NCBI RefSeq assembly: GCF_013122565.1
Contig: NZ_CP053258.1
Origin: Escherichia coli
Lineage (GTDB): Bacteria > Pseudomonadota > Gammaproteobacteria > Enterobacterales > Enterobacteriaceae
DNA length: 64,000 bases
Reading direction: 5' to 3' (one strand)
Position 1 is the first letter of the stretch, and each line of letters starts with the position of its first letter. Under the pieces are notes generated by a model. That model had not been told where the DNA came from. It made no database searches and saw only the letters and a program-made list of their open reading frames with translations. The position numbers and the translations under genes are program-made. Below are positions 13,904 through 56,942 of the stretch, piece after piece.

Positions 13904-15448
13904 ATGGATGTCATTAAAAAGAAACATTGGTGGCAAAGCGACGCGCTGAAATGGTCAGTGCTAGGTCTGCTCGGCCTGCTGGTGGGTTACCTTGTTGTTT
14001 TAATGTACGCACAAGGGGAATACCTGTTCGCCATTACCACGCTGATATTGAGTTCAGCGGGGCTGTATATTTTCGCCAATCGTAAAGCCTACGCCTGGCG
14101 CTATGTTTACCCGGGAATGGCTGGAATGGGATTATTCGTCCTCTTCCCTCTGGTCTGCACCATCGCCATTGCCTTCACCAACTACAGCAGCACTAACCAG
14201 CTGACTTTTGAACGTGCGCAGGAAGTGTTGTTAGATCGCTCCTGGCAAGCAGGCAAAACCTATAACTTTGGTCTTTACCCGGCGGGCGATGAGTGGCAAC
14301 TGGCGCTCAGCGACGGCGAAACCGGCAAAAATTACCTCTCCGACGCGTTTAAATTTGGCGGCGAGCAAAAACTGCAACTGAAAGAAACGACCGCCCAGCC
14401 CGAAGGCGAACGCGCGAATCTGCGCGTGATTACCCAGAACCGCCAGGCGCTGAGTGACATTACCGCCATTCTGCCGGATGGCAACAAAGTGATGATGAGC
14501 TCCCTGCGCCAGTTTTCTGGCACGCAGCCGCTCTACACACTCGACGGTGACGGCACGTTGACGAATAATCAGAGTGGCGTGAAATATCGTCCGAATAACC
14601 AAATTGGCTTTTACCAGTCCATTACCGCCGACGGCAACTGGGGGGATGAAAAGCTAAGCCCCGGTTACACCGTGACCACCGGCTGGAAAAACTTTACCCG
14701 CGTCTTCACCGACGAAGGCATTCAGAAACCGTTCCTCGCCATTTTCGTCTGGACCGTGGTGTTCTCGCTAATCACTGTCTTTTTAACGGTGGCAGTCGGC
14801 ATGATTCTGGCGTGTCTGGTGCAGTGGGAAGCGTTGCGCGGCAAAGCGGTCTATCGCGTCCTGCTGATTCTGCCCTACGCGGTGCCATCGTTCATTTCAA
14901 TCTTGATTTTCAAAGGGTTGTTTAACCAGAGCTTCGGTGAGATCAACATGATGTTGAGCGCGCTGTTTGGCGTGAAGCCCGCCTGGTTCAGCGATCCGAC
15001 CACCGCCCGCACGATGCTGATTATCGTCAATACCTGGCTGGGTTATCCGTACATGATGATCCTCTGCATGGGCTTGCTGAAAGCGATTCCGGACGATTTG
15101 TATGAAGCCTCAGCAATGGATGGCGCAGGTCCGTTCCAGAACTTCTTTAAGATTACGCTGCCGCTGCTGATTAAACCGCTGACGCCGCTGATGATCGCCA
15201 GCTTCGCCTTTAACTTTAACAACTTCGTGCTGATTCAACTGTTAACCAACGGCGGCCCGGATCGTCTTGGCACGACCACGCCAGCCGGTTATACCGACCT
15301 GCTTGTTAACTACACCTACCGCATCGCTTTTGAAGGCGGCGGGGGTCAGGACTTCGGTCTGGCGGCAGCAATTGCCACGCTGATCTTCCTGCTGGTGGGT
15401 GCGCTGGCGATAGTGAACCTGAAAGCCACGCGAATGAAGTTTGATTAA
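13904..15448 (+). CDS. malF: Maltose ABC transporter permease
   Basis: ORF-track entry 13889-15448; start trimmed to ATG 13904 ([17 protein letters not shown]...), 514 aa. Confidence 0.95.
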
Positions 15449-15462
15449 GGGAGATAACAAAA

Positions 15463-16353
15463 ATGGCAATGGTCCAACCGAAATCGCAAAAAGCACGTTT
15501 GTTTATTACTCACCTGCTACTGCTACTTTTTATCGCGGCGATTATGTTCCCGCTGCTGATGGTCGTCGCTATCTCGCTGCGTCAGGGAAACTTCGCGACC
15601 GGTAGCCTGATCCCGGAGCAAATCTCCTGGGATCACTGGAAACTGGCGTTAGGTTTTAGCGTTGAACAGGCTGATGGTCGCATTACGCCACCGCCATTCC
15701 CGGTACTGCTGTGGCTGTGGAACTCGGTAAAGGTCGCCGGGATTTCCGCGATTGGCATTGTGGCGCTCTCCACCACCTGCGCCTACGCTTTCGCCCGTAT
15801 GCGCTTTCCAGGCAAAGCGACGCTGCTGAAAGGAATGCTGATTTTCCAGATGTTCCCGGCAGTACTTTCACTGGTCGCGTTGTATGCGTTGTTTGATCGT
15901 CTGGGTGAGTACATTCCATTCATTGGCCTGAATACTCACGGCGGCGTAATTTTCGCGTATCTGGGTGGGATTGCGCTGCACGTCTGGACCATCAAAGGCT
16001 ATTTCGAAACCATCGACAGTTCGCTGGAAGAAGCGGCTGCGCTGGATGGTGCGACACCGTGGCAGGCCTTCCGCCTTGTCCTGTTGCCGCTGTCAGTACC
16101 GATTCTGGCGGTGGTATTCATCCTGTCGTTTATCGCTGCCATTACTGAAGTTCCGGTCGCGTCGCTGTTACTGCGTGACGTAAACAGCTACACCCTGGCC
16201 GTGGGAATGCAGCAATACCTCAACCCGCAAAACTACCTGTGGGGTGACTTTGCCGCCGCTGCCGTGATGTCTGCATTACCGATCACCATCGTCTTCTTGC
16301 TGGCTCAACGCTGGCTGGTCAACGGCCTGACGGCAGGTGGTGTGAAAGGTTAA
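15463..16353 (+). CDS. malG: Maltose ABC transporter permease
   Basis: 296-aa [42 protein letters not shown]... Confidence 0.95.
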
Positions 16354-16423
16354 AGATGTTGTTCTGCCAATGTTATGCCGCTGCACCCTCAACTTACGTT
16401 ATCCCAACTTGTGACTGTTATTC

Positions 16424-16448
16424 GGCGCTCCACGGAGCGCCTTTTTTT
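16424..16448 (+). terminator. Rho-independent terminator after malG, overlapping the psiE 3' end
   Basis: ggcgctccacggagcgcc hairpin followed by ttttttt. Confidence 0.6.
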
Positions 16449-26655: not shown

Positions 26656-27002
26656 AAATTCTCCTGTAAAACGCGGAATATACCGTACCTCTTAGCGGGG
26701 AAAAACAGGGTTATGCGGCAACGTCGAAATTAAATGTGATCTGCCACGCCTTTTATCACAAAAGTGTCTCCGGAAGTACGATGCAAATTTGCCTGGCAAA
26801 ATAAGGATAATCAACATATTACGAATCGCTGCACACCTGTGCTGATGACTACTACGCAGAGAAACAAATGTGCAAGAGAAAGCGCTATTTCTCCCCATGC
26901 AAAGAGTGAAAAATCGCTTTGAAAGGCCCTCATGATGGGGTTATATCAGATCAAGCGGTGAGAAAGCGTATTTGCACAGATGTGCAGAACCAGGAGGCGG
27001 CA

Positions 27003-27950
27003 ATGGAAAACAGTGACGATATCCGTTTGATTGTGAAGATTGCCCAACTCTATTACGAACAGGATATGACGCAGGCGCAAATCGCGCGCGAACTGGGTAT
27101 TTACCGCACCACCATCAGCCGCTTGCTTAAACGAGGCCGCGATCAGGGAATTGTCACCATCGCCATCAACTATGACTACAACGAAAATCTCTGGCTCGAG
27201 CAGCAACTGAAGCAAAAGTTTGGCCTGAAAGACGTTGTGGTGGTGTCGGGAAATGATGAGGATGAAGAGACTCAACTGGCGATGATGGGGTTACACGGCG
27301 CGCAACTGCTGGATCGCTTGCTGGAGCCTGGCGATATTGTCGGTTTTTCCTGGGGTCGCGCGGTGAGCGCACTGGTTGAAAACTTGCCGCAGGCGGGGCA
27401 ATCGCGGCAGTTAATCTGCGTACCAATTATTGGCGGACCGTCCGGTAAACTCGAAAGCCGCTATCACGTAAACACATTAACCTACAGCGCGGCAGCGAAG
27501 CTGAAAGGGGAATCGCATCTCGCGGATTTTCCGGCTCTGCTGGATAACCCATTAATTCGTAATGGGATCATGCAGTCTCAGCACTTTAAAACCATCTCTG
27601 CCTACTGGGATAATCTGGATGTCGCCCTGGTGGGAATTGGCTCACCGGCCATTCGCGACGGCGCTAACTGGCATGCGTTTTATGGTGGTGAAGAGAGTGA
27701 CGACCTGAATGCCCGCCAGGTTGCTGACGATATTTGCTCGCGCTTTTTTGATATTCACGGCGCAATGGTTGAAACGAATATGAGCGAAAAAACACTCTCT
27801 ATCGAAATGAATAAATTAAAGCAGGCGCGGTATTCCATTGGCATTGCCATGAGTGAAGAAAAATACAGCGGAATTGTTGGTGCACTGCGTGGAAAATATA
27901 TTAATTGTCTGGTAACGAATAGCAGCACAGCTGAACTATTACTGAAATAA
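27003..27950 (+). CDS. sorC: SorC-family transcriptional regulator of the sorbose operon
   Basis: ORF-track entry 26919-27950; start at ATG 27003 with RBS caggagg (MENSDDIRLIVKIAQLYYEQDMTQAQIAREL... HTH plus sugar-binding domain), 315 aa. Confidence 0.8.
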   Translation: MENSDDIRLIVKIAQLYYEQDMTQAQIARELGIYRTTISRLLKRGRDQGIVTIAINYDYNENLWLEQQLKQKFGLKDVVVVSGNDEDEETQLAMMGLHGAQLLDRLLEPGDIVGFSWGRAVSALVENLPQAGQSRQLICVPIIGGPSGKLESRYHVNTLTYSAAAKLKGESHLADFPALLDNPLIRNGIMQSQHFKTISAYWDNLDVALVGIGSPAIRDGANWHAFYGGEESDDLNARQVADDICSRFFDIHGAMVETNMSEKTLSIEMNKLKQARYSIGIAMSEEKYSGIVGALRGKYINCLVTNSSTAELLLK

Positions 27951-28019
27951 AAATCTTCCCGATGTTTACCGTAATAAAAATTACGGCGGGTCCCTATTAT
28001 CTAAAATCAGGAGTCTGTT

Positions 28020-28826
28020 ATGCAAACGTGGTTAAATTTGCAGGATAAAATCATTATCGTCACCGGCGGCGCATCCGGTATTGGTCTGGCGATTGTAGAG
28101 GAATTATTATCACAAGGCGCAAACGTACAGATGGTAGATATTCACGGTGGCGATGGTCAATATGAAGGTCATAAAGGCTATCAGTTTTGGCCGACCGATA
28201 TTTCCAGCGCCAAAGAGGTAAATCATACGGTAGCGGAAATTATTCAGCGTTTTGGTCGCATCGACGGTCTGGTCAATAACGCCGGGGTCAATTTCCCGCG
28301 TCTGCTGGTCGATGAGAAAGCGCCTGCCGGGCAGTATGAACTCAACGAAGCTGCATTCGAAAAAATGGTCAATATCAACCAGAAAGGCGTTTTTCTGATG
28401 TCGCAGGCGGTGGCGCGACAGATGGTCAAACAACATGATGGCGTGATTGTGAATGTTTCCTCAGAAAGTGGACTGGAAGGCTCAGAAGGCCAAAGCTGTT
28501 ACGCCGCTACCAAAGCCGCGCTCAATAGCTTCACGCGCTCCTGGTCGAAAGAATTGGGTAAACACGGTATCCGTGTGGTCGGTATCGCGCCCGGGATTCT
28601 GGAAAAAACCGGGCTACGCACGCCGGAATATGAAGAGGCGCTGGCGTGGACGCGCAATATCACCGTCGAGCAGCTGCGTGAAGGCTATACCAAAAACGCC
28701 ATTCCTATTGGGCGCGCCGGAAGATTAGCAGAAGTCGCTGATTTTGTTTGTTATCTGCTGTCTGAACGCGCCAGCTACATCACCGGAGTAACCACTAACA
28801 TTGCGGGCGGCAAAACACGCGGATAA
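28020..28826 (+). CDS. sorD: Short-chain dehydrogenase, sorbitol(glucitol)-6-phosphate dehydrogenase type
   Basis: 268-aa SDR with TGGASGIGLA Rossmann motif and YxxxK catalytic motif; RBS aggag. Confidence 0.8.
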   Translation: MQTWLNLQDKIIIVTGGASGIGLAIVEELLSQGANVQMVDIHGGDGQYEGHKGYQFWPTDISSAKEVNHTVAEIIQRFGRIDGLVNNAGVNFPRLLVDEKAPAGQYELNEAAFEKMVNINQKGVFLMSQAVARQMVKQHDGVIVNVSSESGLEGSEGQSCYAATKAALNSFTRSWSKELGKHGIRVVGIAPGILEKTGLRTPEYEEALAWTRNITVEQLREGYTKNAIPIGRAGRLAEVADFVCYLLSERASYITGVTTNIAGGKTRG

Positions 28827-28835
28827 GGAGGCTTT

Positions 28836-29243
28836 ATGGTCAACGCCATTTTTTGTGCCCACGGCAAATTAGCTTGCGCCATGCTGGAATCGGTTCAGAT
28901 GGTTTACGGCAACGCCAATGTTGAAGCCGTTGAATTTGTGCCCGGTGAAAACGCCGGAGACATCGTAGCAAAGCTGGAAAAGTTAGTAAGCATTCACAAT
29001 CAAGATGAGTGGCTGATTGCCGTGGATTTACAGTGCGGCAGCCCGTGGAATGCGGCAGCGATGCTTGCGATGCGCAATCCTCGTCTGCGGGTAATCAGCG
29101 GCCTTGCTCTGCCGCTGGCGCTCGAACTGGTTGATAACCAGGACAGCATGAATGTTGATGAACTGTGTGAACACCTGACGCAAATCGCAAAGCAATCCTG
29201 CGTCGTCTGGAGACAGGTGGCAACGGCAGAGGAGGATTTCTGA
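28836..29243 (+). CDS. sorF: PTS mannose/sorbose-family EIIA component
   Basis: 135-aa ORF MVNAIFCAHGKLACAMLESVQMVYG...; RBS aaggagg. Confidence 0.8.
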   Translation: MVNAIFCAHGKLACAMLESVQMVYGNANVEAVEFVPGENAGDIVAKLEKLVSIHNQDEWLIAVDLQCGSPWNAAAMLAMRNPRLRVISGLALPLALELVDNQDSMNVDELCEHLTQIAKQSCVVWRQVATAEEDF

Positions 29244-29737
29244 TGAACATTACGCTCGCCCGCATTGATGACCGCCTGATCCACGGTCAGGTCACTACCG
29301 TCTGGTCGAAAGTGGCTAACGCCCAGCGCATTATTATCTGCAATGACGAAGTTTATAACGATGAAGTTCGCCGGACATTATTGCGTCAGGCTGCGCCACC
29401 GGGAATGAAGGTTAACGTGGTCAATATTGAAAAAGCCGTCGCTGTTTATCACAACCCGCAATATCAGGACGAAACCGTTTTTTATCTTTTTACTCGCCCA
29501 CAGGATGCCTTAGCGATGGTTCGCCAGGGGGTAAAAATAGGCACCCTGAATATTGGCGGCATGGCCTGGCGGCCCGGTAAAAAACAGTTAACCAAAGCGG
29601 TTTCATTAGATGATGATGATATTAACGCATTTCATGAGTTAAATAATCTTGGTGTCATACTGGATTTACGCGTCGTAGCGTCAGATCCCTCAATCAATAT
29701 TATCGACAAAATAAACGAACAGTTAATCGCAAATTAA
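29243..29737 (+). CDS. sorB: PTS mannose/sorbose-family EIIB component
   Basis: 164-aa ORF MNITLARIDDRLIHGQVTTVW...; start overlaps the sorF stop (TGATG). Confidence 0.8.
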   Translation: MNITLARIDDRLIHGQVTTVWSKVANAQRIIICNDEVYNDEVRRTLLRQAAPPGMKVNVVNIEKAVAVYHNPQYQDETVFYLFTRPQDALAMVRQGVKIGTLNIGGMAWRPGKKQLTKAVSLDDDDINAFHELNNLGVILDLRVVASDPSINIIDKINEQLIAN

Positions 29738-29802
29738 ATAATAGCGCCTGTGTACATATGCTTTAACAGGCAGGGATGACGACACTTAAAAGGTGACAAA
29801 TC

Positions 29803-30591
29803 ATGGAAATAAGTACCCTACAAATCATTGCTATATTTCTTTTTTCCTGTATTGCCGGAATGGGCAGTGTGCTGGATGAATTTCAGACTCATCGCCCGTT
29901 AATTGCCTGTACGGTGATTGGTTTAATTCTCGGTGATTTAAAAACCGGAATAATACTCGGTGGTACGCTGGAATTGATAGCTCTCGGCTGGATGAACGTC
30001 GGCGCGGCACAATCTCCGGATTCTGCACTCGCCAGCATAATCTCCGCCATTCTGGTTATCGTTGGTCAGCAAAGCATCGCCACCGGAATCGCCATCGCGT
30101 TGCCTGTGGCTGCGGCAGGCCAGGTGCTGACGGTGTTTGCCCGTACCATCACCGTAGTGTTCCAGCACGCGGCGGATAAAGCAGCGGAAGAAGCACGGTT
30201 TCGCACTCTCGATATTCTGCATGTCTCCGCGCTTGGCGTGCAGGCGCTGCGCGTTGCTATTCCGGCACTGATTGTCTCGCTGTTCGTCAGCGCCGATATG
30301 GTCAGCAATATGTTAAACGCCATTCCCGAATTTGTGACCCGAGGTCTGCAAATTGCTGGCGGTTTTATCGTGGTGGTCGGTTACGCCATGGTGCTACGTA
30401 TGATGGGCGTGAAATATTTGATGCCTTTCGGTTTCCTCGCAGGTGGCTACCTCGATCTCAGTCTGCTGGCGTTCGGTGGCGTCGGCGTGATCATGGCCCT
30501 GGTCTACATCCAGCTAAATCCACAGTGGCGTAAAGCTGAACCTCAACTCCAGGCCACCGCCTCCACCGCCCTTGACCAACTTGACGATTAA
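29803..30591 (+). CDS. sorA: PTS mannose/sorbose-family EIIC component
   Basis: 262-aa hydrophobic ORF MEISTLQIIAIFLFSCIAGMGSVLDEF... Confidence 0.8.
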   Translation: MEISTLQIIAIFLFSCIAGMGSVLDEFQTHRPLIACTVIGLILGDLKTGIILGGTLELIALGWMNVGAAQSPDSALASIISAILVIVGQQSIATGIAIALPVAAAGQVLTVFARTITVVFQHAADKAAEEARFRTLDILHVSALGVQALRVAIPALIVSLFVSADMVSNMLNAIPEFVTRGLQIAGGFIVVVGYAMVLRMMGVKYLMPFGFLAGGYLDLSLLAFGGVGVIMALVYIQLNPQWRKAEPQLQATASTALDQLDD

Positions 30592-30601
30592 CGGAGCCAT
30601 C

Positions 30602-31426
30602 ATGGAACAGAGAAAAATTACACGCAGCGATCTGGTGAGCATGTTTCTGCGCTCCAACCTGCAACAGGCGTCCTTTAACTTTGAACGTATTCACGGGCTG
30701 GGTTTTTGCTACGACATGATCCCCGCCATCAAGCGACTTTACCCATTAAAAGAGGATCAGGTTGCGGCGCTCAGGCGACACCTGGTGTTCTTTAATACCA
30801 CGCCAGCCGTATGTGGCCCGGTCATCGGCGTCACTGCCGCCATGGAAGAGGCGCGGGCCAACGGCGCGGAAATTGATGACGGTACCATTAACGGCATCAA
30901 AGTCGGCCTGATGGGACCGTTGGCAGGGGTTGGCGATCCACTGGTCTGGGGAACGCTGCGCCCGATTACCGCCGCGCTCGGCGCATCTCTGGCACTTTCT
31001 GGCAACATCCTCGGCCCGCTTTTGTTTTTCTTTATTTTCAATGCGGTGCGTCTGGCGATGAAGTGGTATGGCCTACAGCTCGGCTTTCGCAAAGGGGTGA
31101 ATATCGTCAGCGATATGGGCGGGAATGTGCTGCAAAAACTCACCGAAGGCGCGTCGATTCTCGGACTGTTTGTGATGGGCGTGCTGGTGACCAAATGGAC
31201 GTCAATCAACGTACCGTTGGTGGTTTCACAAACGCATGCCGCCGATGGCTCCACCGTCACCATGACCGTGCAGAACATTCTCGACCAACTTTGCCCTGGT
31301 TTGCTGGCGCTCGGTCTGACGCTACTAATGGTTCGTCTGCTCAACAAAAAAATTAACCCGGTATGGCTGATTTTCGCCCTGTTTGGCTTAGGGATTATCG
31401 GCAATGCGCTGGGCTTCCTGTCCTGA
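30602..31426 (+). CDS. sorM: PTS mannose/sorbose-family EIID component
   Basis: ORF-track entry 30572-31426; start at ATG 30602 with RBS acggag (MEQRKITRSDLVSMFLRSNLQQASFNFERIHGLGF...), 274 aa. Confidence 0.8.
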   Translation: MEQRKITRSDLVSMFLRSNLQQASFNFERIHGLGFCYDMIPAIKRLYPLKEDQVAALRRHLVFFNTTPAVCGPVIGVTAAMEEARANGAEIDDGTINGIKVGLMGPLAGVGDPLVWGTLRPITAALGASLALSGNILGPLLFFFIFNAVRLAMKWYGLQLGFRKGVNIVSDMGGNVLQKLTEGASILGLFVMGVLVTKWTSINVPLVVSQTHAADGSTVTMTVQNILDQLCPGLLALGLTLLMVRLLNKKINPVWLIFALFGLGIIGNALGFLS

Positions 31427-31477
31427 TTCTTCGCCCCGGCACGACTGCCGGGGCCATCGCTCAACATGAGGTGGTTT

Positions 31478-32707
31478 ATGAAAACAACAGCTCTGCGTCT
31501 TTATGGTAAACGTGATTTACGCCTGGAAACCTTTGATCTTCCTGAAATGCAGGAGGATGAAATCCTCGCGACGGTGGTCACTGACAGCCTGTGCCTCTCT
31601 TCCTGGAAAGAGGCCAACCTGGGTGAAAACCATAAAAAAGTACCCGACGATGTGGCGACCAACCCCATCATCATCGGCCACGAGTTTTGCGGCGATATTC
31701 TGGCCGTGGGTAAAAAGTGGCAGCACAAATTTCAGCCGGGCCAGCGCTATGTGATTCAGGCCAACCTGCAATTGCCGGATCGCCCGGACTGCCCCGGCTA
31801 CTCCTTCCCGTGGGTGGGCGGTGAAGCCACACATGTGGTTATCCCAAATGAGGTTATGGAACAAGATTGCCTGCTGGCATACGACGGCGAAACCTATTTT
31901 GAAGGCTCGCTGGTTGAACCGCTTTCCTGCGTGATTGGCGCGTTCAACGCCAACTATCATCTTCAGGAAGGTAGTTATAACCACACGATGGGGATTCGCC
32001 CGCAAGGGCGCACGCTGATCCTCGGCGGCACCGGACCAATGGGACTGTTGGCGATTGATTATGCGCTGCATGGACCAGTTAACCCGTCGCTGCTCGTCAT
32101 TACCGATACCGACAACGACAAATTGAGTTATGCGCGCAAGTACTATCCATCAGAACCGCAAACACTGATTCATTATCTCAATGCCGCCGATGCAGCATTT
32201 GGTACGTTAATGGCACTGAGTGGCGGTCACGGCTTCGATGATATTTTCGTCTTTGTGCCTAATGAAGGACTGGTGACTCTCGCCTCTTCCTTGCTGGCGA
32301 CAGATGGTTGCCTGAATTTCTTCGCCGGACCGCAGGATAAACATTTCAGCGCGCCAATTAATTTCTACGATGTGCATTATGCATTTACCCACTACGTGGG
32401 CACGTCAGGCGGCAATACCGACGACATGCGCGCGGCGGTCAAACTGATCGAAGAGAAAAAAGTGCAGGCCGCAAAAGTGGTAACACATATTCTTGGGCTG
32501 AATGCCGCGGGCGAAACCACGCTTGAATTGCCTGCCGTCGGCGGCGGCAAAAAGCTGGTGTATACCGGGAAATACCTGCCGCTGACGTCACTCACGCAGA
32601 TTCAGGATCAAGCACTGGCGGCGATTCTGGCGCGTCATCAGGGGATCTGGTCCGGTGAGGCGGAGCAATACCTGCTCGCCCATGCAGAAGCAATTTCCCA
32701 TGATTAA
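31478..32707 (+). CDS. sorE: Zn-dependent MDR-family dehydrogenase, sorbose-1-phosphate reductase type
   Basis: ORF-track entry 31466-32707; start at ATG 31478 with RBS gaggtgg (MKTTALRLYGKRDLRLETF...GHEFCGDI...), 409 aa. Confidence 0.8.
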   Translation: MKTTALRLYGKRDLRLETFDLPEMQEDEILATVVTDSLCLSSWKEANLGENHKKVPDDVATNPIIIGHEFCGDILAVGKKWQHKFQPGQRYVIQANLQLPDRPDCPGYSFPWVGGEATHVVIPNEVMEQDCLLAYDGETYFEGSLVEPLSCVIGAFNANYHLQEGSYNHTMGIRPQGRTLILGGTGPMGLLAIDYALHGPVNPSLLVITDTDNDKLSYARKYYPSEPQTLIHYLNAADAAFGTLMALSGGHGFDDIFVFVPNEGLVTLASSLLATDGCLNFFAGPQDKHFSAPINFYDVHYAFTHYVGTSGGNTDDMRAAVKLIEEKKVQAAKVVTHILGLNAAGETTLELPAVGGGKKLVYTGKYLPLTSLTQIQDQALAAILARHQGIWSGEAEQYLLAHAEAISHD

Positions 32708-32865
32708 TCGCGCTACTTAACTCTGCATGTCGCTGGCTGGTCGCCGCGGCAACTTCGCGACCTGATGTGCGGCTGATTGCAGAAGCGGCACAATGTGCAC
32801 GAGAAGGATAAAAAACATCAGCGCCTTAAGGGGCGCTCAAATTGGTAGCAAAGTGCACATTGTTT

Positions 32866-32975
32866 ATGCCGGATGCGGAATGAAGCCTTATTCGGTCTAC
32901 ATAATTTTGAAAATTCAATATATTGCAGTTATCTGGTAGGCCTGGTAAGCGTAGCGCATCAGGCAATGCTGTGTT
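32866..32975. repeat. REP elements between sorE and pepE
   Basis: gccggatgcggaatgaagccttattcggtctaca ... taggcctggtaagcgtagcgcatcaggca. Confidence 0.6.
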
Positions 32976-33088
32976 TGTCATCAGTCTCAGCGCCCGGTGC
33001 AATACGTGACATCGTGAGCCATGTCAGTAAGTGGTTAAATTCGCAGTGGTAGCATTCCTTCCGTGATTTCTTGCTAACCGGAGAAGTA

Positions 33089-39402: not shown

Positions 39403-39601
39403 ACTTGCTCCCGACACGCTCAACCCAGATTTAATAAAAATTCAACAAACCATACTGGCATAAACGCATCTGTGGTAAAAGCAACCACTACCCAACATGA
39501 GATTTGTTCAACATTAACTCATCGGATCAGTTCAGCAACTATTGCATTAGCTAACAATAAAAATGAAAATGATTTCCACGATACAGAAAAAGGAGACTGT
39601 C

Positions 39602-40426
39602 ATGGTCGCACCCATTCCCGCGAAACGCGGCAGAAAACCCGCCGTTGCCACCGCACCAGCGACTGGACAGGTTCAGTCTTTAACGCGTGGCCTGAAATTA
39701 CTGGAGTGGATTGCCGAATCCAATGGCAGTGTGGCACTCACGGAACTGGCGCAACAAGCCGGGTTACCCAATTCCACGACCCACCGCCTGCTAACCACGA
39801 TGCAACAGCAGGGTTTCGTGCGTCAGGTCGGCGAACTGGGACATTGGGCAATCGGCGCACATGCCTTTATGGTCGGCAGCAGCTTTCTCCAGAGCCGTAA
39901 TTTGTTAGCAATTGTTCACCCTATCCTGCGCAATTTAATGGAAGAGTCTGGCGAAACGGTCAATATGGCGGTGCTTGATCAAAGCGATCACGAAGCGATT
40001 ATTATCGACCAGGTACAGTGTACGCATCTGATGCGAATGTCCGCGCCTATCGGCGGTAAATTGCCGATGCACGCTTCCGGTGCGGGTAAAGCCTTTTTAG
40101 CCCAACTGAGCGAAGAACAGGTGACGAAGCTGCTGCACCGCAAAGGGTTACATGCCTATACCCACGCAACGCTGGTGTCTCCTGTGCATTTAAAAGAAGA
40201 TCTCGCCCAAACGCGCAAACGGGGTTATTCATTTGACGATGAGGAACATGCGCTGGGGCTACGTTGCCTTGCAGCGTGTATTTTCGATGAGCACCGTGAA
40301 CCGTTTGCCGCAATTTCTATTTCCGGACCGATTTCACGTATTACCGATGACCGCGTGACCGAGTTTGGCGCGATGGTGATTAAAGCGGCGAAGGAAGTGA
40401 CGCTGGCCTATGGCGGGATGCGGTGA
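39602..40426 (+). CDS. iclR: Glyoxylate-shunt repressor IclR
   Basis: ORF-track entry 39563-40426; start at ATG 39602 with RBS aaaggag (MVAPIPAKRGRKPAVATAPATGQVQSLTRGLKLLEW...), 274 aa. Confidence 0.95.
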   Translation: MVAPIPAKRGRKPAVATAPATGQVQSLTRGLKLLEWIAESNGSVALTELAQQAGLPNSTTHRLLTTMQQQGFVRQVGELGHWAIGAHAFMVGSSFLQSRNLLAIVHPILRNLMEESGETVNMAVLDQSDHEAIIIDQVQCTHLMRMSAPIGGKLPMHASGAGKAFLAQLSEEQVTKLLHRKGLHAYTHATLVSPVHLKEDLAQTRKRGYSFDDEEHALGLRCLAACIFDEHREPFAAISISGPISRITDDRVTEFGAMVIKAAKEVTLAYGGMR

Positions 40427-40442
40427 CATTTTCGCTTCTGAT

Positions 40443-42167
<1,725 letters not shown>

Positions 42168-42193
42168 TTAGCGCCCTCATCAAGAGCAAAGAA

Positions 42194-42238
42194 TTGCCGG
42201 ATGCGGCGTGAACGCCTTATCCGGCCTACAGTCAGCAA
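42194..42238. repeat. REP element in the aceA-aceK intergenic region
   Basis: gccggatgcggcgtgaacgccttatccggcctaca. Confidence 0.6.
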
Positions 42239-42251
42239 CGGTTGTTGTTGC

Positions 42252-43556
42252 TTAGAACTGCGATTCTTCGGTGGAGCCAGTTAGCGCGGTAACTGACGAC
42301 GTACCGCCCTGAATAATGGTCGTCACTTTATCGAAATAACCTGTACCCACTTCCTGCTGGTGAGATACGAAGGTATAGCCATCTTTCGCAGCGGCAAATT
42401 CCGGCTGCTGCACTTTCTCAACATAGTGCTTCATACCCTCGCCCTGGGCATAGGCGTTTGCCAGGTCGAACATGTTGAACCACATGCTGTGGATACCTGC
42501 CAGGGTGATGAACTGGAACTTGTAGCCCATATCCGACAGCTGCTGCTGGAAGCTGGCAATAGTTTTGTCGTCGAGGTTTTTCTGCCAGTTGAACGACGGC
42601 GAGCAGTTATAAGCCAGCAGTTTGCCTGGATATTTCGCGTGGATAGCTTGTGCAAAGCGACGCGCCAGTTCCAGATCCGGCGTGGAGGTTTCACACCATA
42701 CCAGGTCAGCATATGGCGCATACGCCAGGCCACGGCTGATCGCTTGCTCAATGCCCGCATGAGTACGGAAGAAGCCTTCACTGGTACGCTCGCCGGTAAT
42801 AAATTCGCTGTCATACGGGTCGCAATCGGAGGTGATCAGATCCGCCGCATCGGCATCGGTACGAGCAACCAGCAGAGTCGGAACGCCCGTCACGTCAGCC
42901 GCCAGACGCGCCGCAACCAGTTTCTGAATAGCTTCCTGAGTTGGCACCAAAACTTTGCCGCCCATGTGACCGCATTTCTTCACTGACGCCAGCTGATCTT
43001 CGAAGTGAACTGCCGCTGCACCGGCTTCAATCATCGCTTTCATCAGTTCAAAGGCATTCAGGACACCGCCAAAACCGGCTTCCGCATCGGCAACGATCGG
43101 CAGGAAGTAATCGACATAGCGCGGATCGCCCGGCTCAATACCCGCGGACCATTGGATCTGATCCGCACGGCGGAAGGTGTTGTTGATCCGCTCCACCACA
43201 GCTGGCACCGAGTTTGCCGGATAGAGCGACTGATCCGGATACATGCTGGCCGCCAGGTTAGCGTCCGCCGCTACCTGCCATCCCGACAGATAGACCGCTT
43301 CAATACCCGCTTTCGCCTGTTGCAGCGCCTGACCGCCAGTCAGTGCACCGAGGCTGTTGATGTAGCCTTTTTTCGACTCGCCATGCAGCAGACGCCACAT
43401 TTTCGCCGCGCCCAGTTGCGCCAGCGTGCATTCAGGATTGACTGAACCGCGTAATTTCACCACATCTTCCGCGCTGTATGGGCGAGTAATGCCTTCCCAA
43501 CGCGGTTGAGTCCACTCTTTCTGTAATTCTTCAATTTGTTGTGTACGGGTTTTCAT
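42252..43556 (-). CDS. aceA: Isocitrate lyase
   Basis: ORF-track entry 42252-43571; start at ATG 43554-43556 ([23 protein letters not shown]...), 434 aa. Confidence 0.97.
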
Positions 43557-46541: not shown

Positions 46542-46985
46542 ATGGTTATTAGTATTCGCCGCTCACGGTATGAGGAAGGGGAGGAACTCGTTGCGATTTG
46601 GTGTCGATCTGTCGATGCCACCCACGATTTTTTATCAGCAGAGTATCGGGCCGAGCTGGAAGAGCTGGTTCGTTCCTTTCTGCCGGAAGCACCGTTGTGG
46701 GTCGCGGTTAATGAACGGGATCAGCTGGTTGGGTTTATGTTGTTAAGTGGGCAGCATATGGATGCGCTGTTTATCGATCCTGATGTGCGCGGCTGCGGCG
46801 TGGGTCGGATGCTGGTGGAGCATGCGCTCTCGATGGCACCGGAACTGACAACCAACGTTAATGAGCAAAATGAGCAGGCGGTTGGGTTCTATAAGAAGGT
46901 GGGTTTTAAGGTTACTGGACGCTCTGAGGTGGACGATTTGGGGAAACCGTATCCGTTGCTGAATCTGGCGTATGTGGGGGAATAA
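46542..46985 (+). CDS. yjaB: GNAT-family N-acetyltransferase
   Basis: ORF-track entry 46536-46985 starts at GTG; ATG 46542 with RBS aaggag gives MVISIRRSRYEEGEELVAIW..., 147 aa. Confidence 0.9.
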   Translation: MVISIRRSRYEEGEELVAIWCRSVDATHDFLSAEYRAELEELVRSFLPEAPLWVAVNERDQLVGFMLLSGQHMDALFIDPDVRGCGVGRMLVEHALSMAPELTTNVNEQNEQAVGFYKKVGFKVTGRSEVDDLGKPYPLLNLAYVGE

Positions 46986-47068
46986 GCTGCCCCCTATCGT
47001 GCTATCGTGCCTGCGTAAGCTGGATAAGACGCGCCAGCGTCGCATCCGGCATTTTTTTCTGCGCCAAT

Positions 47069-47096
47069 GCAAAAAGGCCATCCGTCAGGATGGCCT
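47069..47096 (-). terminator. rrnE operon terminator
   Basis: Minus-strand RNA forms aggccatcctgacggatggcct hairpin followed by uuuuu, immediately 3' of the 5S rRNA; a REP-like element lies adjacent at about 47010-47052. Confidence 0.65.
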
Positions 47097-47109
47097 TTCG
47101 CTTAATTTG

Positions 47110-52623: not shown

Positions 52624-52729
52624 ACAATGCGGGCGAAAAATAAGGATGCCCCGTTAGGGGCGTTAGCTGAGTTTTTCGCGAAAAATTCAGCTAACGCTCT
52701 CTGTAATAGTCAAATCCAGGGGATTTACC

Positions 52730-54319
52730 ATGCAACAACGTCGTCCAGTCCGCCGCGCTCTGCTCAGTGTTTCTGACAAAGCCGGTATCGTCGAATTCGC
52801 CCAGGCACTTTCCACACGCGGTGTGGAGCTGCTGTCTACAGGGGGCACTGCCCGTCTGTTAGCAGAAAAAGGTCTGCCGGTAACCGAAGTTTCCGATTAC
52901 ACCGGTTTCCCGGAGATGATGGATGGACGCGTGAAGACCCTGCATCCGAAAGTACATGGTGGCATTCTGGGCCGTCGCGGCCAGGACGATGCCATTATGG
53001 AAGAACATCAGATCCAGCCTATCGATATGGTGGTTGTTAACCTGTATCCGTTCGCCCAGACCGTTGCTCGTGAAGGCTGCTCGCTGGAAGATGCGGTTGA
53101 GAACATCGATATCGGCGGCCCGACCATGGTGCGCTCCGCCGCTAAGAACCATAAAGATGTCGCAATCGTGGTGAAGAGCAGCGACTACGACGCCATTATT
53201 AAAGAGATGGATGCCAACGAAGGATCGCTGACGCTTGCAACCCGTTTCGACCTCGCCATCAAAGCCTTCGAACACACTGCCGCCTACGACAGTATGATTG
53301 CCAACTACTTCGGCAGCATGGTTCCGGCTTACCACGGTGAAAGCAAAGAAGCCGCAGGCCGCTTCCCGCGCACGCTGAACCTGAACTTCATTAAGAAGCA
53401 GGATATGCGTTACGGCGAGAACAGCCACCAGCAGGCTGCCTTCTATATAGAAGAGAATGTGAAAGAAGCCTCCGTTGCTACCGCAACCCAGGTTCAGGGT
53501 AAAGCCCTCTCTTATAACAACATCGCCGACACCGATGCGGCGCTGGAGTGCGTGAAAGAGTTCGCCGAGCCGGCATGTGTGATTGTGAAGCACGCCAACC
53601 CTTGCGGCGTGGCTATCGGCAATTCCATTCTTGACGCTTACGATCGCGCGTACAAAACCGACCCGACCTCCGCATTCGGCGGCATCATTGCCTTTAACCG
53701 CGAGCTGGATGCGGAAACCGCGCAGGCCATCATTTCTCGTCAGTTTGTTGAAGTGATCATTGCGCCATCCGCCAGCGAAGAAGCCCTGAAAATCACCGCC
53801 GCCAAACAAAACGTTCGTGTCCTGACCTGTGGTCAGTGGGGCGAGCGTGTTCCGGGTCTTGATTTCAAACGCGTAAACGGCGGTTTGCTGGTTCAGGATC
53901 GCGATCTGGGGATGGTCGGCGCAGAAGAGCTGCGCGTCGTGACCAAACGTCAGCCGAGTGAACAGGAACTGCGTGATGCGCTGTTCTGCTGGAAAGTGGC
54001 GAAGTTCGTGAAATCCAATGCTATCGTCTATGCCAAAAACAATATGACCATCGGTATTGGCGCGGGCCAGATGAGCCGCGTGTACTCCGCGAAAATCGCC
54101 GGTATTAAAGCTGCCGATGAAGGCCTGGAAGTGAAAGGTTCCTCGATGGCTTCTGACGCGTTCTTCCCGTTCCGCGACGGTATTGATGCCGCCGCCGCTG
54201 CAGGCGTGACCTGTGTAATCCAGCCTGGCGGTTCTATCCGTGATGACGAAGTGATTGCTGCCGCCGACGAGCACGGTATTGCGATGCTCTTCACCGACAT
54301 GCGCCACTTCCGCCATTAA
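52730..54319 (+). CDS. purH: Bifunctional AICAR transformylase / IMP cyclohydrolase
   Basis: 529-aa [44 protein letters not shown]... Confidence 0.97.
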
Positions 54320-54330
54320 TGGAGCAATAG

Positions 54331-55620
54331 ATGAAAGTATTAGTGATTGGTAACGGCGGGCGCGAGCACGCGCTGGCCTGGAAAGCGGCCCAGTCGCCGC
54401 TGGTTGAGACTGTTTTTGTTGCTCCGGGTAATGCAGGCACTGCGCTGGAACCCGCGCTGCAAAACGTTGCTATCGGCGTGACCGATATCCCGGCGCTGTT
54501 GGATTTCGCACAAAACGAAAAGATTGATCTGACCATCGTCGGCCCGGAAGCGCCGCTGGTGAAAGGCGTGGTCGATACCTTCCGCGCCGCCGGGCTGAAA
54601 ATCTTCGGCCCAACCGCAGGTGCGGCCCAACTGGAAGGCTCAAAAGCGTTTACCAAAGATTTCCTGGCCCGCCATAAGATCCCTACGGCGGAATACCAGA
54701 ACTTCACCGAGGTAGAACCTGCGCTGGCGTATCTGCGTGAGAAAGGCGCGCCAATCGTCATTAAAGCTGACGGTCTGGCTGCCGGGAAAGGCGTTATCGT
54801 GGCGATGACGCTGGAAGAAGCGGAAGCGGCTGTTCACGATATGCTGGCGGGCAACGCGTTTGGAGATGCGGGTCATCGCATCGTTATCGAAGAGTTCCTC
54901 GATGGCGAAGAAGCGAGCTTTATCGTGATGGTGGACGGCGAGCATGTGCTGCCGATGGCCACCAGCCAGGATCACAAACGCGTAGGCGATAAAGATACCG
55001 GACCAAACACGGGCGGGATGGGCGCTTACTCCCCCGCGCCGGTAGTAACCGATGAAGTTCATCAGCGCACCATGGAACGTATTATCTGGCCAACAGTGAA
55101 AGGCATGGCGGCGGAAGGCAACACCTACACCGGTTTTCTCTACGCGGGCCTGATGATCGACAAACAGGGCAATCCGAAGGTTATTGAATTTAACTGCCGC
55201 TTTGGCGATCCGGAAACCCAGCCGATTATGCTGCGCATGAAGTCCGATCTTGTTGAACTCTGCCTGGCGGCCTGTGAAGGCAAGCTGGACGAGAAAACGT
55301 CAGAGTGGGATGAACGCGCTTCTCTCGGCGTGGTGATGGCAGCGGGCGGGTATCCGGGTGATTATCGCACCGGTGATGTGATCCACGGCCTGCCGCTGGA
55401 AGAAGTGGCAGGCGGCAAAGTGTTCCACGCGGGCACGAAACTGGCGGATAACGAGCAGGTAGTGACCAGCGGCGGGCGCGTACTGTGCGTCACCGCGCTG
55501 GGTCATACCGTAGCAGAAGCGCAGAAACGCGCCTATGACTTAATGACCGATATCCACTGGGACGACTGCTTCTGCCGGAAAGATATCGGCTGGCGCGCTA
55601 TCGAACGCGAGCAGAACTAA
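54331..55620 (+). CDS. purD: Phosphoribosylamine-glycine ligase
   Basis: 429-aa ORF MKVLVIGNGGREHALAWKAAQSPLVETVFVAPGNAGTA... Confidence 0.97.
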   Translation: MKVLVIGNGGREHALAWKAAQSPLVETVFVAPGNAGTALEPALQNVAIGVTDIPALLDFAQNEKIDLTIVGPEAPLVKGVVDTFRAAGLKIFGPTAGAAQLEGSKAFTKDFLARHKIPTAEYQNFTEVEPALAYLREKGAPIVIKADGLAAGKGVIVAMTLEEAEAAVHDMLAGNAFGDAGHRIVIEEFLDGEEASFIVMVDGEHVLPMATSQDHKRVGDKDTGPNTGGMGAYSPAPVVTDEVHQRTMERIIWPTVKGMAAEGNTYTGFLYAGLMIDKQGNPKVIEFNCRFGDPETQPIMLRMKSDLVELCLAACEGKLDEKTSEWDERASLGVVMAAGGYPGDYRTGDVIHGLPLEEVAGGKVFHAGTKLADNEQVVTSGGRVLCVTALGHTVAEAQKRAYDLMTDIHWDDCFCRKDIGWRAIEREQN

Positions 55621-56942
55621 CGCGACAGTTTTGCCAATAGCGTTTTGCGAGTGATCCCTAACTGACGGGCGGCTTCGGTTTTGTTGCCGCCCGTTTTCTC
55701 CAGCGCCGCCAGAATCACCTCTTTTTCCACTTCCACCAACGGCTGAATATCCTGACTTTGCCCCAGCGGGATCGGCGTACTGGCAATCGCCAGCGGCAGC
55801 TCGCGTTCGGAAATATATTCCCCAGTCAGCAGCACCACCGCCCGTTCCACCGCATTTTCCAGTTCACGAATATTTCCCGGCCAGTCGTAATGAATCAACA
55901 GATCCATCGCCTGGGGCGTAAAGCCTTTTACCGCCTTGCGATTACGTTCAGCAAAGCGCTGAAGAAAATGGCCAGCCAGCAGAGGAATATCTTCCCGCCG
56001 TTGCCGCAGCGACGGTACTTCAATCGCCACCACGTTCAGGCGATAGTAGAGATCCTGGCGAAAACGCCCGGCCTTTACCTCTGCGGCAAGATCGCGATGG
56101 GTCGCCGCAATCAGCCGGACATCAACCGAAATAGTCTGGTTGCTACCGACACGCTGAACTTCGCGTTCCTGAATCGCACGTAGCAGACGCACCTGCATCA
56201 TCGGCGAGATATCGCCAATTTCATCGAGAAACAGCGTGCCGCCGTCCGCCTCAACAAAGCGCCCTTCCCGGCGTTTATCGGCTCCAGTAAACGCCCCTTT
56301 TTCGTGACCGAACAATTCAGATTCCAGCAAGGATTCGTTGAGTGCCGCACAGTTGAGCGTTACCAGCGGTTTTTCGCTACGTGCGCTACTGGCGTGAATC
56401 GCCCTGGCGACCAGCTCTTTACCGGTGCCGGAATCGCCGTGGATCAGCACCGTGGCTTCCGATGGCGCGACGAGGGCGATTTCACTGAGCAGGTGTTGCA
56501 TCGCCGGGCTTTTACCGACCATACCGAACTGGCTGGCAGTCACCGCAGGTGTTTCAGCATCAATACTGTGCGTATGCGCGAGCGCCTTTTCCAGCGTCGC
56601 CTGTAGGTTATCGAAATCCAGCGGCTTGATGAGATAATCCAGCGCCCCAGTTTTCAGTGCCTCTACCGCCGTCTCGACGCTGGAGTACGCAGTCATAATC
56701 AGCACCGGAATTGCCGGGTTTAACGCTTTGATCTCTTTCAGCGTGGCGATGCCGTCCATCTCCGCCATTCGCACATCGCAAAGCACAAGATCAAAAACCT
56801 GTTCCCGCACCTGCTCCAGCGCCTGTCGCCCGCTGTTCGCCAGCGCGACGTTATAGCCCCAGCCGCGCAGTAAAGCCTGCAAAATAGTGCAGTGGCTAAT
56901 GTCATCATCCACCACCAGAATATCGATATTATCGTGCGTCAT
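55617..56942 (-). CDS. zraR: Sigma54-dependent two-component response regulator
   Basis: 441-aa ORF with receiver domain, AAA+ sigma54-activation domain ([14 protein letters not shown]) and C-terminal HTH; stop overlaps the purD stop by 4 nt (convergent). Confidence 0.95.

Follow-up and report, generated by a model that had tools for sequence, protein, structure and literature searches.

Does the direct adjacency of iclR and aceK, with no arpA between them, reveal the phylogroup of the Escherichia coli strain that carries it, and how did such a junction come about? The question arises for a stretch of 64,000 nucleotides of E. coli DNA (hereafter the window, meaning the whole stretch analysed), in which these two convergent genes almost touch. 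Absence of arpA is the marker for phylogroups B2 and F in the quadruplex typing scheme (Clermont 2013, as cited in PMC10525238). The original prediction stated this rule correctly and took the junction as a B2/F-type configuration.

The gene order is yjbB, metH, iclR, aceK, aceA, aceB and metA, followed by the rrnE operon; over its entire length the window matches the gene order of K-12 MG1655 positions 4,196,388-4,258,979, in reverse orientation. The features at and around the junction are as follows.

39602..40426, plus strand: iclR, 274 aa repressor of the glyoxylate bypass operon (ORF, translation and colinearity with annotated iclR in K-12, IAI39, 042 and others)
40427..40442, no strand: spacer between the convergent iclR and aceK stops, 16 bp, CATTTTCGCTTCTGAT (read from the sequence)
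40434..40450, no strand: about 17 bp in place of the arpA segment, boundaries +/- ~3 bp (alignments against K-12, O111:H8, O55:H7 and 042)
40443..42167, minus strand: aceK, isocitrate dehydrogenase kinase/phosphatase, 574 aa (translation)
42168..42251, no strand: aceA-aceK intergenic spacer, 84 bp with one REP element (from the sequence)
42252..43556, minus strand: aceA, isocitrate lyase, whose 3' end contains the right edge of the divergent block described below (ORF and colinearity with annotated aceA)

The iclR stop is TGA at 40424-40426; the longest open reading frame begins at 39563 and the annotated-type start is at 39602. The aceK gene starts at 42167 and ends in TAA, read as TTA on the plus strand at 40443-40445. 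Thus the stops at 40426 and 40443 are separated by 16 bp, and the coordinates and description in the original prediction were accurate. The Pfam domains AceK_regulatory and AceK_kinase are recorded for a protein identical to the window AceK. This protein ends in ...RFSVRFV, whereas the K-12 AceK has 578 aa and ends in ...RFSVRYGEMLF. The spacer between aceA and aceK differs in length among the reference strains (48-215 bp), and that of IAI39 bears IS1397.

As had also been claimed, K-12 carries arpA (b4017, 728 aa) between iclR and aceK, and the stops of the two genes are 2,471 bp apart there. The K-12 arpA overlaps the 3' end of aceK by 32 bp. The alignment to K-12 across the junction, which had been proposed as a check, places about 17 bp (40434-40450) opposite ~2.48 kb of K-12; the segment opposite these bases is ~1.9 kb in the B1 type. 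A tblastn search with K-12 ArpA identified no homologue in the 64-kb window (best E = 4.2).

We looked for signs of regulation at the junction. A search for a terminator-like site in the iclR-aceK spacer found none, folding of the junction was unremarkable (z-scores of 0.00 and -0.77), no Rfam family matched between 38.5 and 47 kb, and a search for repeats in the divergent block (~40405-42400) identified nothing meaningful. Thus, nothing suggests a special regulatory element at the iclR-aceK junction. An exact 40-mer of the junction had zero matches in the metagenome contigs searched.

An arpA gene collapsed or lost during assembly could, in principle, produce the same picture. However, an independent Logan assembly contig (SRR11451224_111) is 100% identical to the window across the junction over 7,780 bp, and the arpA-free arrangement is a common natural one: a 901-bp junction query finds an uninterrupted match in 1,314 of the 5,426 complete E. 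coli genomes, and in the others the match is split in two around arpA. Because of this identical independent assembly and the many genomes with the same junction, we conclude that the arpA-free arrangement is real and common; it is also already known. The chance of an assembly artefact is vanishingly small.

Which state of the locus came first? In K-12 the segment between the two stops has a GC content of 36.9%, versus 52.8% for aceK and 54.2% for iclR, and arpA itself is a 2,187-bp gene of 37.6% GC. The protein matches the Pfam family Toxin_15 (ShET2 enterotoxin N-terminal region, E = 2.9e-96) and has weak ankyrin matches in addition; in RefSeq it is listed as a type III effector of the ShET2/EspL2 family, or as EspL4. 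The last codons of the K-12 AceK (...RYGEMLF) fall inside the arpA segment. As read from these sequences, arpA is an AT-rich, horizontally acquired insertion present in part of E. coli, and it replaced the last codons of aceK. ArpA is 728 aa long in both K-12 and 042. In some arpA-positive strains the gene has decayed: it encodes 524 aa in O111:H8 8E and JNE151685, where the iclR-aceK gap is 1,860 bp, and it is frameshifted in O55:H7 RM12579.

Other species provide the comparison for the empty site. A scan for AceK over one genome per bacterial species returned, among the matches listed, Escherichia albertii, E. whittamii and Escherichia sp. MOD1-EC7003; those listed included no E. coli, E. 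fergusonii, E. marmotae or E. ruysiae locus and no 100% match. The three genomes are contiguous across the junction, with a homologous spacer of 15-16 bp and an AceK that ends in RFV. The spacer at 40427-40442 and the 3' end of iclR are identical in MOD1-EC7003 and the window, and the homologous spacer in F and B2 E. coli is also 15-16 bp. In Salmonella, Citrobacter and Klebsiella iclR adjoins aceK with short REP-like spacers and without arpA. Because these genera and the other Escherichia species lack arpA, and AceK ends in RFV in the Escherichia species, the arpA-free junction is, on this comparative evidence, the ancestral state in Escherichia. The window has all three of the ancestral traits that we tested: the 15-16-bp spacer, the 574-aa AceK ending in RFSVRFV, and no arpA-derived sequence anywhere in its 64 kb.

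We then read the typing markers directly. In-silico PCR was run with the published Clermont primers (PMC4322292), allowing up to 5 mismatches, and the K-12 control gave the expected products of 400 bp for arpA and 211 bp for yjaA. One primer site is present in the window.

40822..40841, minus strand: site of the Clermont primer AceK.f, exact (in-silico PCR)

No site for the partner primer ArpA1.r occurs in the window, even with 5 mismatches allowed, so the arpA PCR is negative. Also negative is the yjaA PCR, as neither a primer site nor a YjaA homologue was found in the window. This second Clermont marker, which the original prediction passed over, is gone from its usual locus between the 5S rRNA gene and yjaB (46981-47102), where 122 bp of the window replace 518 bp of K-12 (4,213,167-4,213,684). 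In-silico Clermont typing had been proposed as a check, and it could be completed in part: the markers readable in the window are arpA and yjaA, both negative, and chuA and TspE4.C2 are located elsewhere on the chromosome; the window contains no chuA primer sites. In the quadruplex pattern most B2 strains are yjaA-positive, and F strains are negative for yjaA and TspE4.C2. The absence of yjaA from the window fits F, not typical B2. The authors of ClermonTyping warn that transfer of arpA alleles gives discordant Clermont types (PMC6113867).

Several other genes of the window vary in presence among the references. The D-xylose:H+ symporter gene xylE is absent at ~16444-16448, between psiE and malG; this junction is colinear with those of WP4-S17 (B2), IAI39 (F), 042 (D) and 200164, and xylE is present in K-12 and JNE151685. 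The sor operon (L-sorbose PTS/utilisation) occupies 26691-32998 between rluF and pepE. It is missing in K-12 and present in most other references, and the window sorE, unlike those of IAI39 and FDAARGOS_497, has no neighbouring shikimate dehydrogenase gene. Also encoded is an intact yjbI (526 aa, 6697-8277, minus strand; 'SopA family protein' in RefSeq); K-12 and JNE151685 have it as a pseudogene, and the B2 reference and 200164 lack it. The combination of xylE absent, yjbI and sor present and yjaA absent is shared with IAI39 (F) and with the arpA-bearing 042 (D). Thus, gene content does not discriminate F from D.

Two further features concern intergenic sites. An imperfect palindrome of ~140 bp at ~61466-61606, between hemE and nfi, has ends GAGCCTGGT...ACCAGGCTC and is probably a small intergenic repeat element; the hemE-nfi gap is 9 bp in K-12 and 156 bp in 042. 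Between yjbD and lysC, FDAARGOS_497 and IAI39 (both arpA- and yjaA-negative) carry a P2-like prophage, and the window has no insertion at this place. The tape-measure gene of the FDAARGOS_497 prophage is broken by a resistance island with CTX-M-15, OXA-1, aac(6')-Ib-cr, tet(A) and IS26.

If the missing arpA reflected B2 or F ancestry, the surrounding sequence might be expected to resemble those groups most. References were projected on the window and ~36 kb were compared, leaving out aceK and the rRNA operon. Identity is 98.39% to JNE151685 (arpA-positive, B1-like), 98.17% to K-12 (A), 98.07% to 042 (D), 98.01% to IAI39 (F), 98.00% to 200164 (arpA- and yjaA-negative) and 97.33% to WP4-S17-ESBL-03, which we take as B2 because it is arpA-negative and yjaA-positive. 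A neighbor-joining (NJ) split of the window, K-12 and JNE151685 from the D, F, 200164 and B2 references was recovered in all 300 of 300 bootstraps (500-bp blocks), in a phylogeny built from NJ distances over a single 64-kb chromosome region, with each phylogroup represented by one or two references. Sites informative in quartets join the window with K-12 in 276 cases, with IAI39 in 124 and with 042 in 81. The quartets of the immediate 12-kb flanks are mosaic and lean to the B1 and E references.

The wider collection gives a similar picture. Among the 5,426 complete E. coli genomes the best identities are 98.7% for 1-16400, 98.0% for 28000-52000 and 98.7% for 52700-64000; no complete genome exceeds 98.7%, and the top genomes for the segments flanking aceK are arpA-positive strains of A/B1 type. 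Flank identity to other species is lower (94.4% to MOD1-EC7003, 92.8% to E. whittamii and 92.4% to E. albertii). By these identities, 97.3-98.7% to E. coli references and genomes versus 92-94% to other Escherichia, the window is E. coli sensu stricto. The original prediction was right that the strain is not K-12-like (~98.1% identity to K-12). Its step from arpA-negative to B2/F, however, is unsupported, as the flanks are nearer to A/B1 (98.2-98.4%) than to F or B2 and group with A/B1 in every bootstrap. As judged from the window, a close relationship to B2 or F genomes is not supported by sequence identity.

Two other backgrounds were considered and put aside. Cryptic clade I seems unlikely: B2 is more distant from K-12 than the window is, and clade I reportedly carries arpA (PMC10525238). 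Shigella was rejected on indirect grounds: IS elements are lacking throughout the 64 kb, and an AceK identical to that of the window occurs in only one public assembly, whereas Shigella has been sequenced abundantly.

The sequence around the junction itself behaves differently from these flanks. We identified one block of unusual divergence.

~40405..42400, no strand: divergent haplotype block comprising the last ~20 bp of iclR, the iclR-aceK spacer, aceK, the aceA-aceK spacer and the last ~150 bp of aceA (identity profile)

Within iclR, positions 40001-40400 are 99.5-100% identical to the K-12 (A), O111:H8 (B1) and O55:H7 (E) references, and identity to the A/B1/E references drops to ~89% at 40401-40600. 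Through aceK it is 90-98% to every E. coli reference, and it returns to 99% from ~42400 in the 3' end of aceA. Positions at which the window differs from every one of the five E. coli references amount to 2.4% of the block versus 0.5% elsewhere. In a scan of 45 kb of scorable sequence, the only 500-bp bins with at least 8 such private differences are those of the block, and the run extends from 40408 to near 42303. Half of the private differences in the block (27 of 54) agree with an outgroup base.

The aceK allele accounts for most of this block. It is basal to all E. coli alleles in an NJ tree, its best nucleotide identity among 5,425 E. coli genomes is 95.9%, and the B2 and F alleles examined match it at 93.3-95.2%. 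Identities to other species are 93.2% (MOD1-EC7003), 91.9% (E. whittamii) and 91.6% (E. albertii). MOD1-EC7003 was rejected as the donor: it has the closest AceK protein among the matches listed (98% aa), yet its nucleotide identity is below that of E. coli alleles. An exact match to the AceK protein was found in one SRA assembly only (Logan SRR11451224, on an 8.4-kb contig). Relative to the genomes nearest to it in the flanks, the window has diverged 3.0-3.4 times as far in aceK as in the flanks; for other E. coli pairs the median of this ratio is 1.39. In E. coli generally, aceK is more diverged than its flanks (mean 3.65% versus 2.57%, and 5.4% in some pairs); the mean for the window aceK is 5.68%. 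Thus, the allele lies at the extreme of a known pattern, not outside it, and the gene as such is responsible for some of the excess. Among the E. coli compared here, aceK and both flanking spacers are unusually variable in length and sequence. Polymorphism in the size and sequence of aceK is the topic of Nelson, Wang, Boyd and Selander (1997, Genetics 147:1509). The length and 3' flank of aceK reportedly vary among ECOR strains. In these comparisons, a rare and deep aceK haplotype of ~2 kb sits inside a backbone that groups with A/B1/E, with block boundaries and flank affinity read directly from the alignments.

How might such a block have been left without arpA? The likeliest history, which we favour with modest confidence, is that recombinational replacement removed the gene. 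Homologous recombination with crossovers in the 3' ends of iclR and aceA would have swapped the segment carrying arpA and aceK for a foreign, divergent, arpA-free aceK allele, so that arpA was lost; the same exchange would have changed the AceK C-terminus from ...RYGEMLF to ...RFV. We infer both the recombination and, tentatively, its direction. The abrupt edges of the block, its private differences, the basal position of aceK, the raised aceK/flank ratio and the A/B1 affinity of the flanks argue for replacement. Against it, no donor was found (the nearest aceK is at 95.9% in E. coli and 93.2% in MOD1-EC7003), the gene-content pattern (arpA-, yjaA- and xylE-negative, yjbI-positive) equals that of the F strain IAI39, and the 12-kb flanks are mosaic. 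Ancestral retention would look the same and fits most of the data, and we consider it rather unlikely but worth serious attention. A rare, deep E. coli lineage that never had arpA could have had its flanks overwritten by A/B1/E-like DNA, the indel acting as a barrier that preserved the aceK block. The lack of a close relative (98.0-98.7% at best in the 5,426 genomes), the single SRA assembly with the exact AceK, the agreement of 27 of the 54 private differences in the block with an outgroup base, and the identity of the spacer and the 3' end of iclR to those of MOD1-EC7003 are all consistent with retention. Mildly against it, an old genome should hold further remnants, yet no comparable density of private differences occurs elsewhere in the 45 kb scored, and the backbone rate is only 0.5%.

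Simple descent from B2, F or G, with arpA lacking by inheritance, appears improbable. The junction is structurally that of the 1,314 arpA-free E. coli genomes, IAI39 included, the window matches IAI39 in lacking yjaA and xylE and keeping yjbI, and arpA absence is the published B2/F marker. However, the pattern is not specific to F, since 042 (D) departs from it only in having arpA, and the flanks are less similar to B2 (97.33%) and F (98.01%) than to A/B1-type strains (98.2-98.4%), with which they group in 300 of 300 bootstraps. Groups B2, F and G are heavily sampled, yet nothing exceeds 98.7% identity and the top matches carry arpA; the identity of aceK to the B2 and F alleles examined is also no more than 93.3-95.2%. 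A fresh, spontaneous deletion in an arpA-positive strain is more doubtful still and has very little probability. The gene does seem dispensable and is decaying (524 aa in O111:H8 and JNE151685, frameshifted in O55:H7), but the window has the ancestral 16-bp spacer and an AceK ending in RFV instead of a truncated K-12-type end, and the whole of aceK is another allele. We exclude this route: deleting arpA could not bring back the ancestral spacer and AceK ending.

Recombinational replacement thus remains our preferred explanation. A fuller version, offered tentatively as a real possibility, is that the strain represents an essentially unsampled lineage on the A/B1/E side, without arpA and yjaA, whose arpA locus was overwritten by a deep aceK haplotype from some Escherichia donor. 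With its rare aceK haplotype, the source looks like an uncommon lineage of E. coli. Were the strain indeed from such an unsampled lineage, Clermont PCR would mistype it as F or 'unknown'.

By itself the missing gene has little significance: strains are routinely typed by whether they carry arpA, and its absence is the ancestral state. Of wider concern is that a single-locus marker read from one window may mislead on phylogroup if the locus has been exchanged by recombination. The expected consequences for the strain would be confined to the loss of a dispensable accessory gene, an AceK four residues shorter with a different tail, and a misleading Clermont type. The rare aceK allele and the lack of a close relative suggest an uncommon lineage, maybe one worth proper typing.

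In comparison with known systems, the locus resembles the arpA-negative arrangement of B2 and F strains such as IAI39. Both have convergent genes, a 16-bp spacer and a 574-aa AceK ending in RFV, and in both AceK.f is present and the ArpA1.r site is absent. The window differs in its aceK, whose divergence from the B2 and F alleles examined is 4.8-6.7%, and in its flanking 36 kb, which group with A/B1. With K-12 arpA (b4017) the window shares the chromosomal site between aceK and iclR, but the gene, which in K-12 encodes a ShET2 N-terminal domain and ankyrin repeats and rewrites the end of aceK, is missing. The 15-16-bp spacer and the AceK C-terminus are those of E. albertii, E. whittamii (clade II) and MOD1-EC7003, although aceK is 91.6-93.2% and the flanks are 92-94% identical to the window in these species. 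A documented parallel is provided by ECOR44 and a second IAI strain (PMC6113867), where the state of the arpA locus is likewise at odds with the genome background: those strains carry an E-type arpA in a D background, whereas the window combines the arpA-free state with a local background that is A/B1/E-like.
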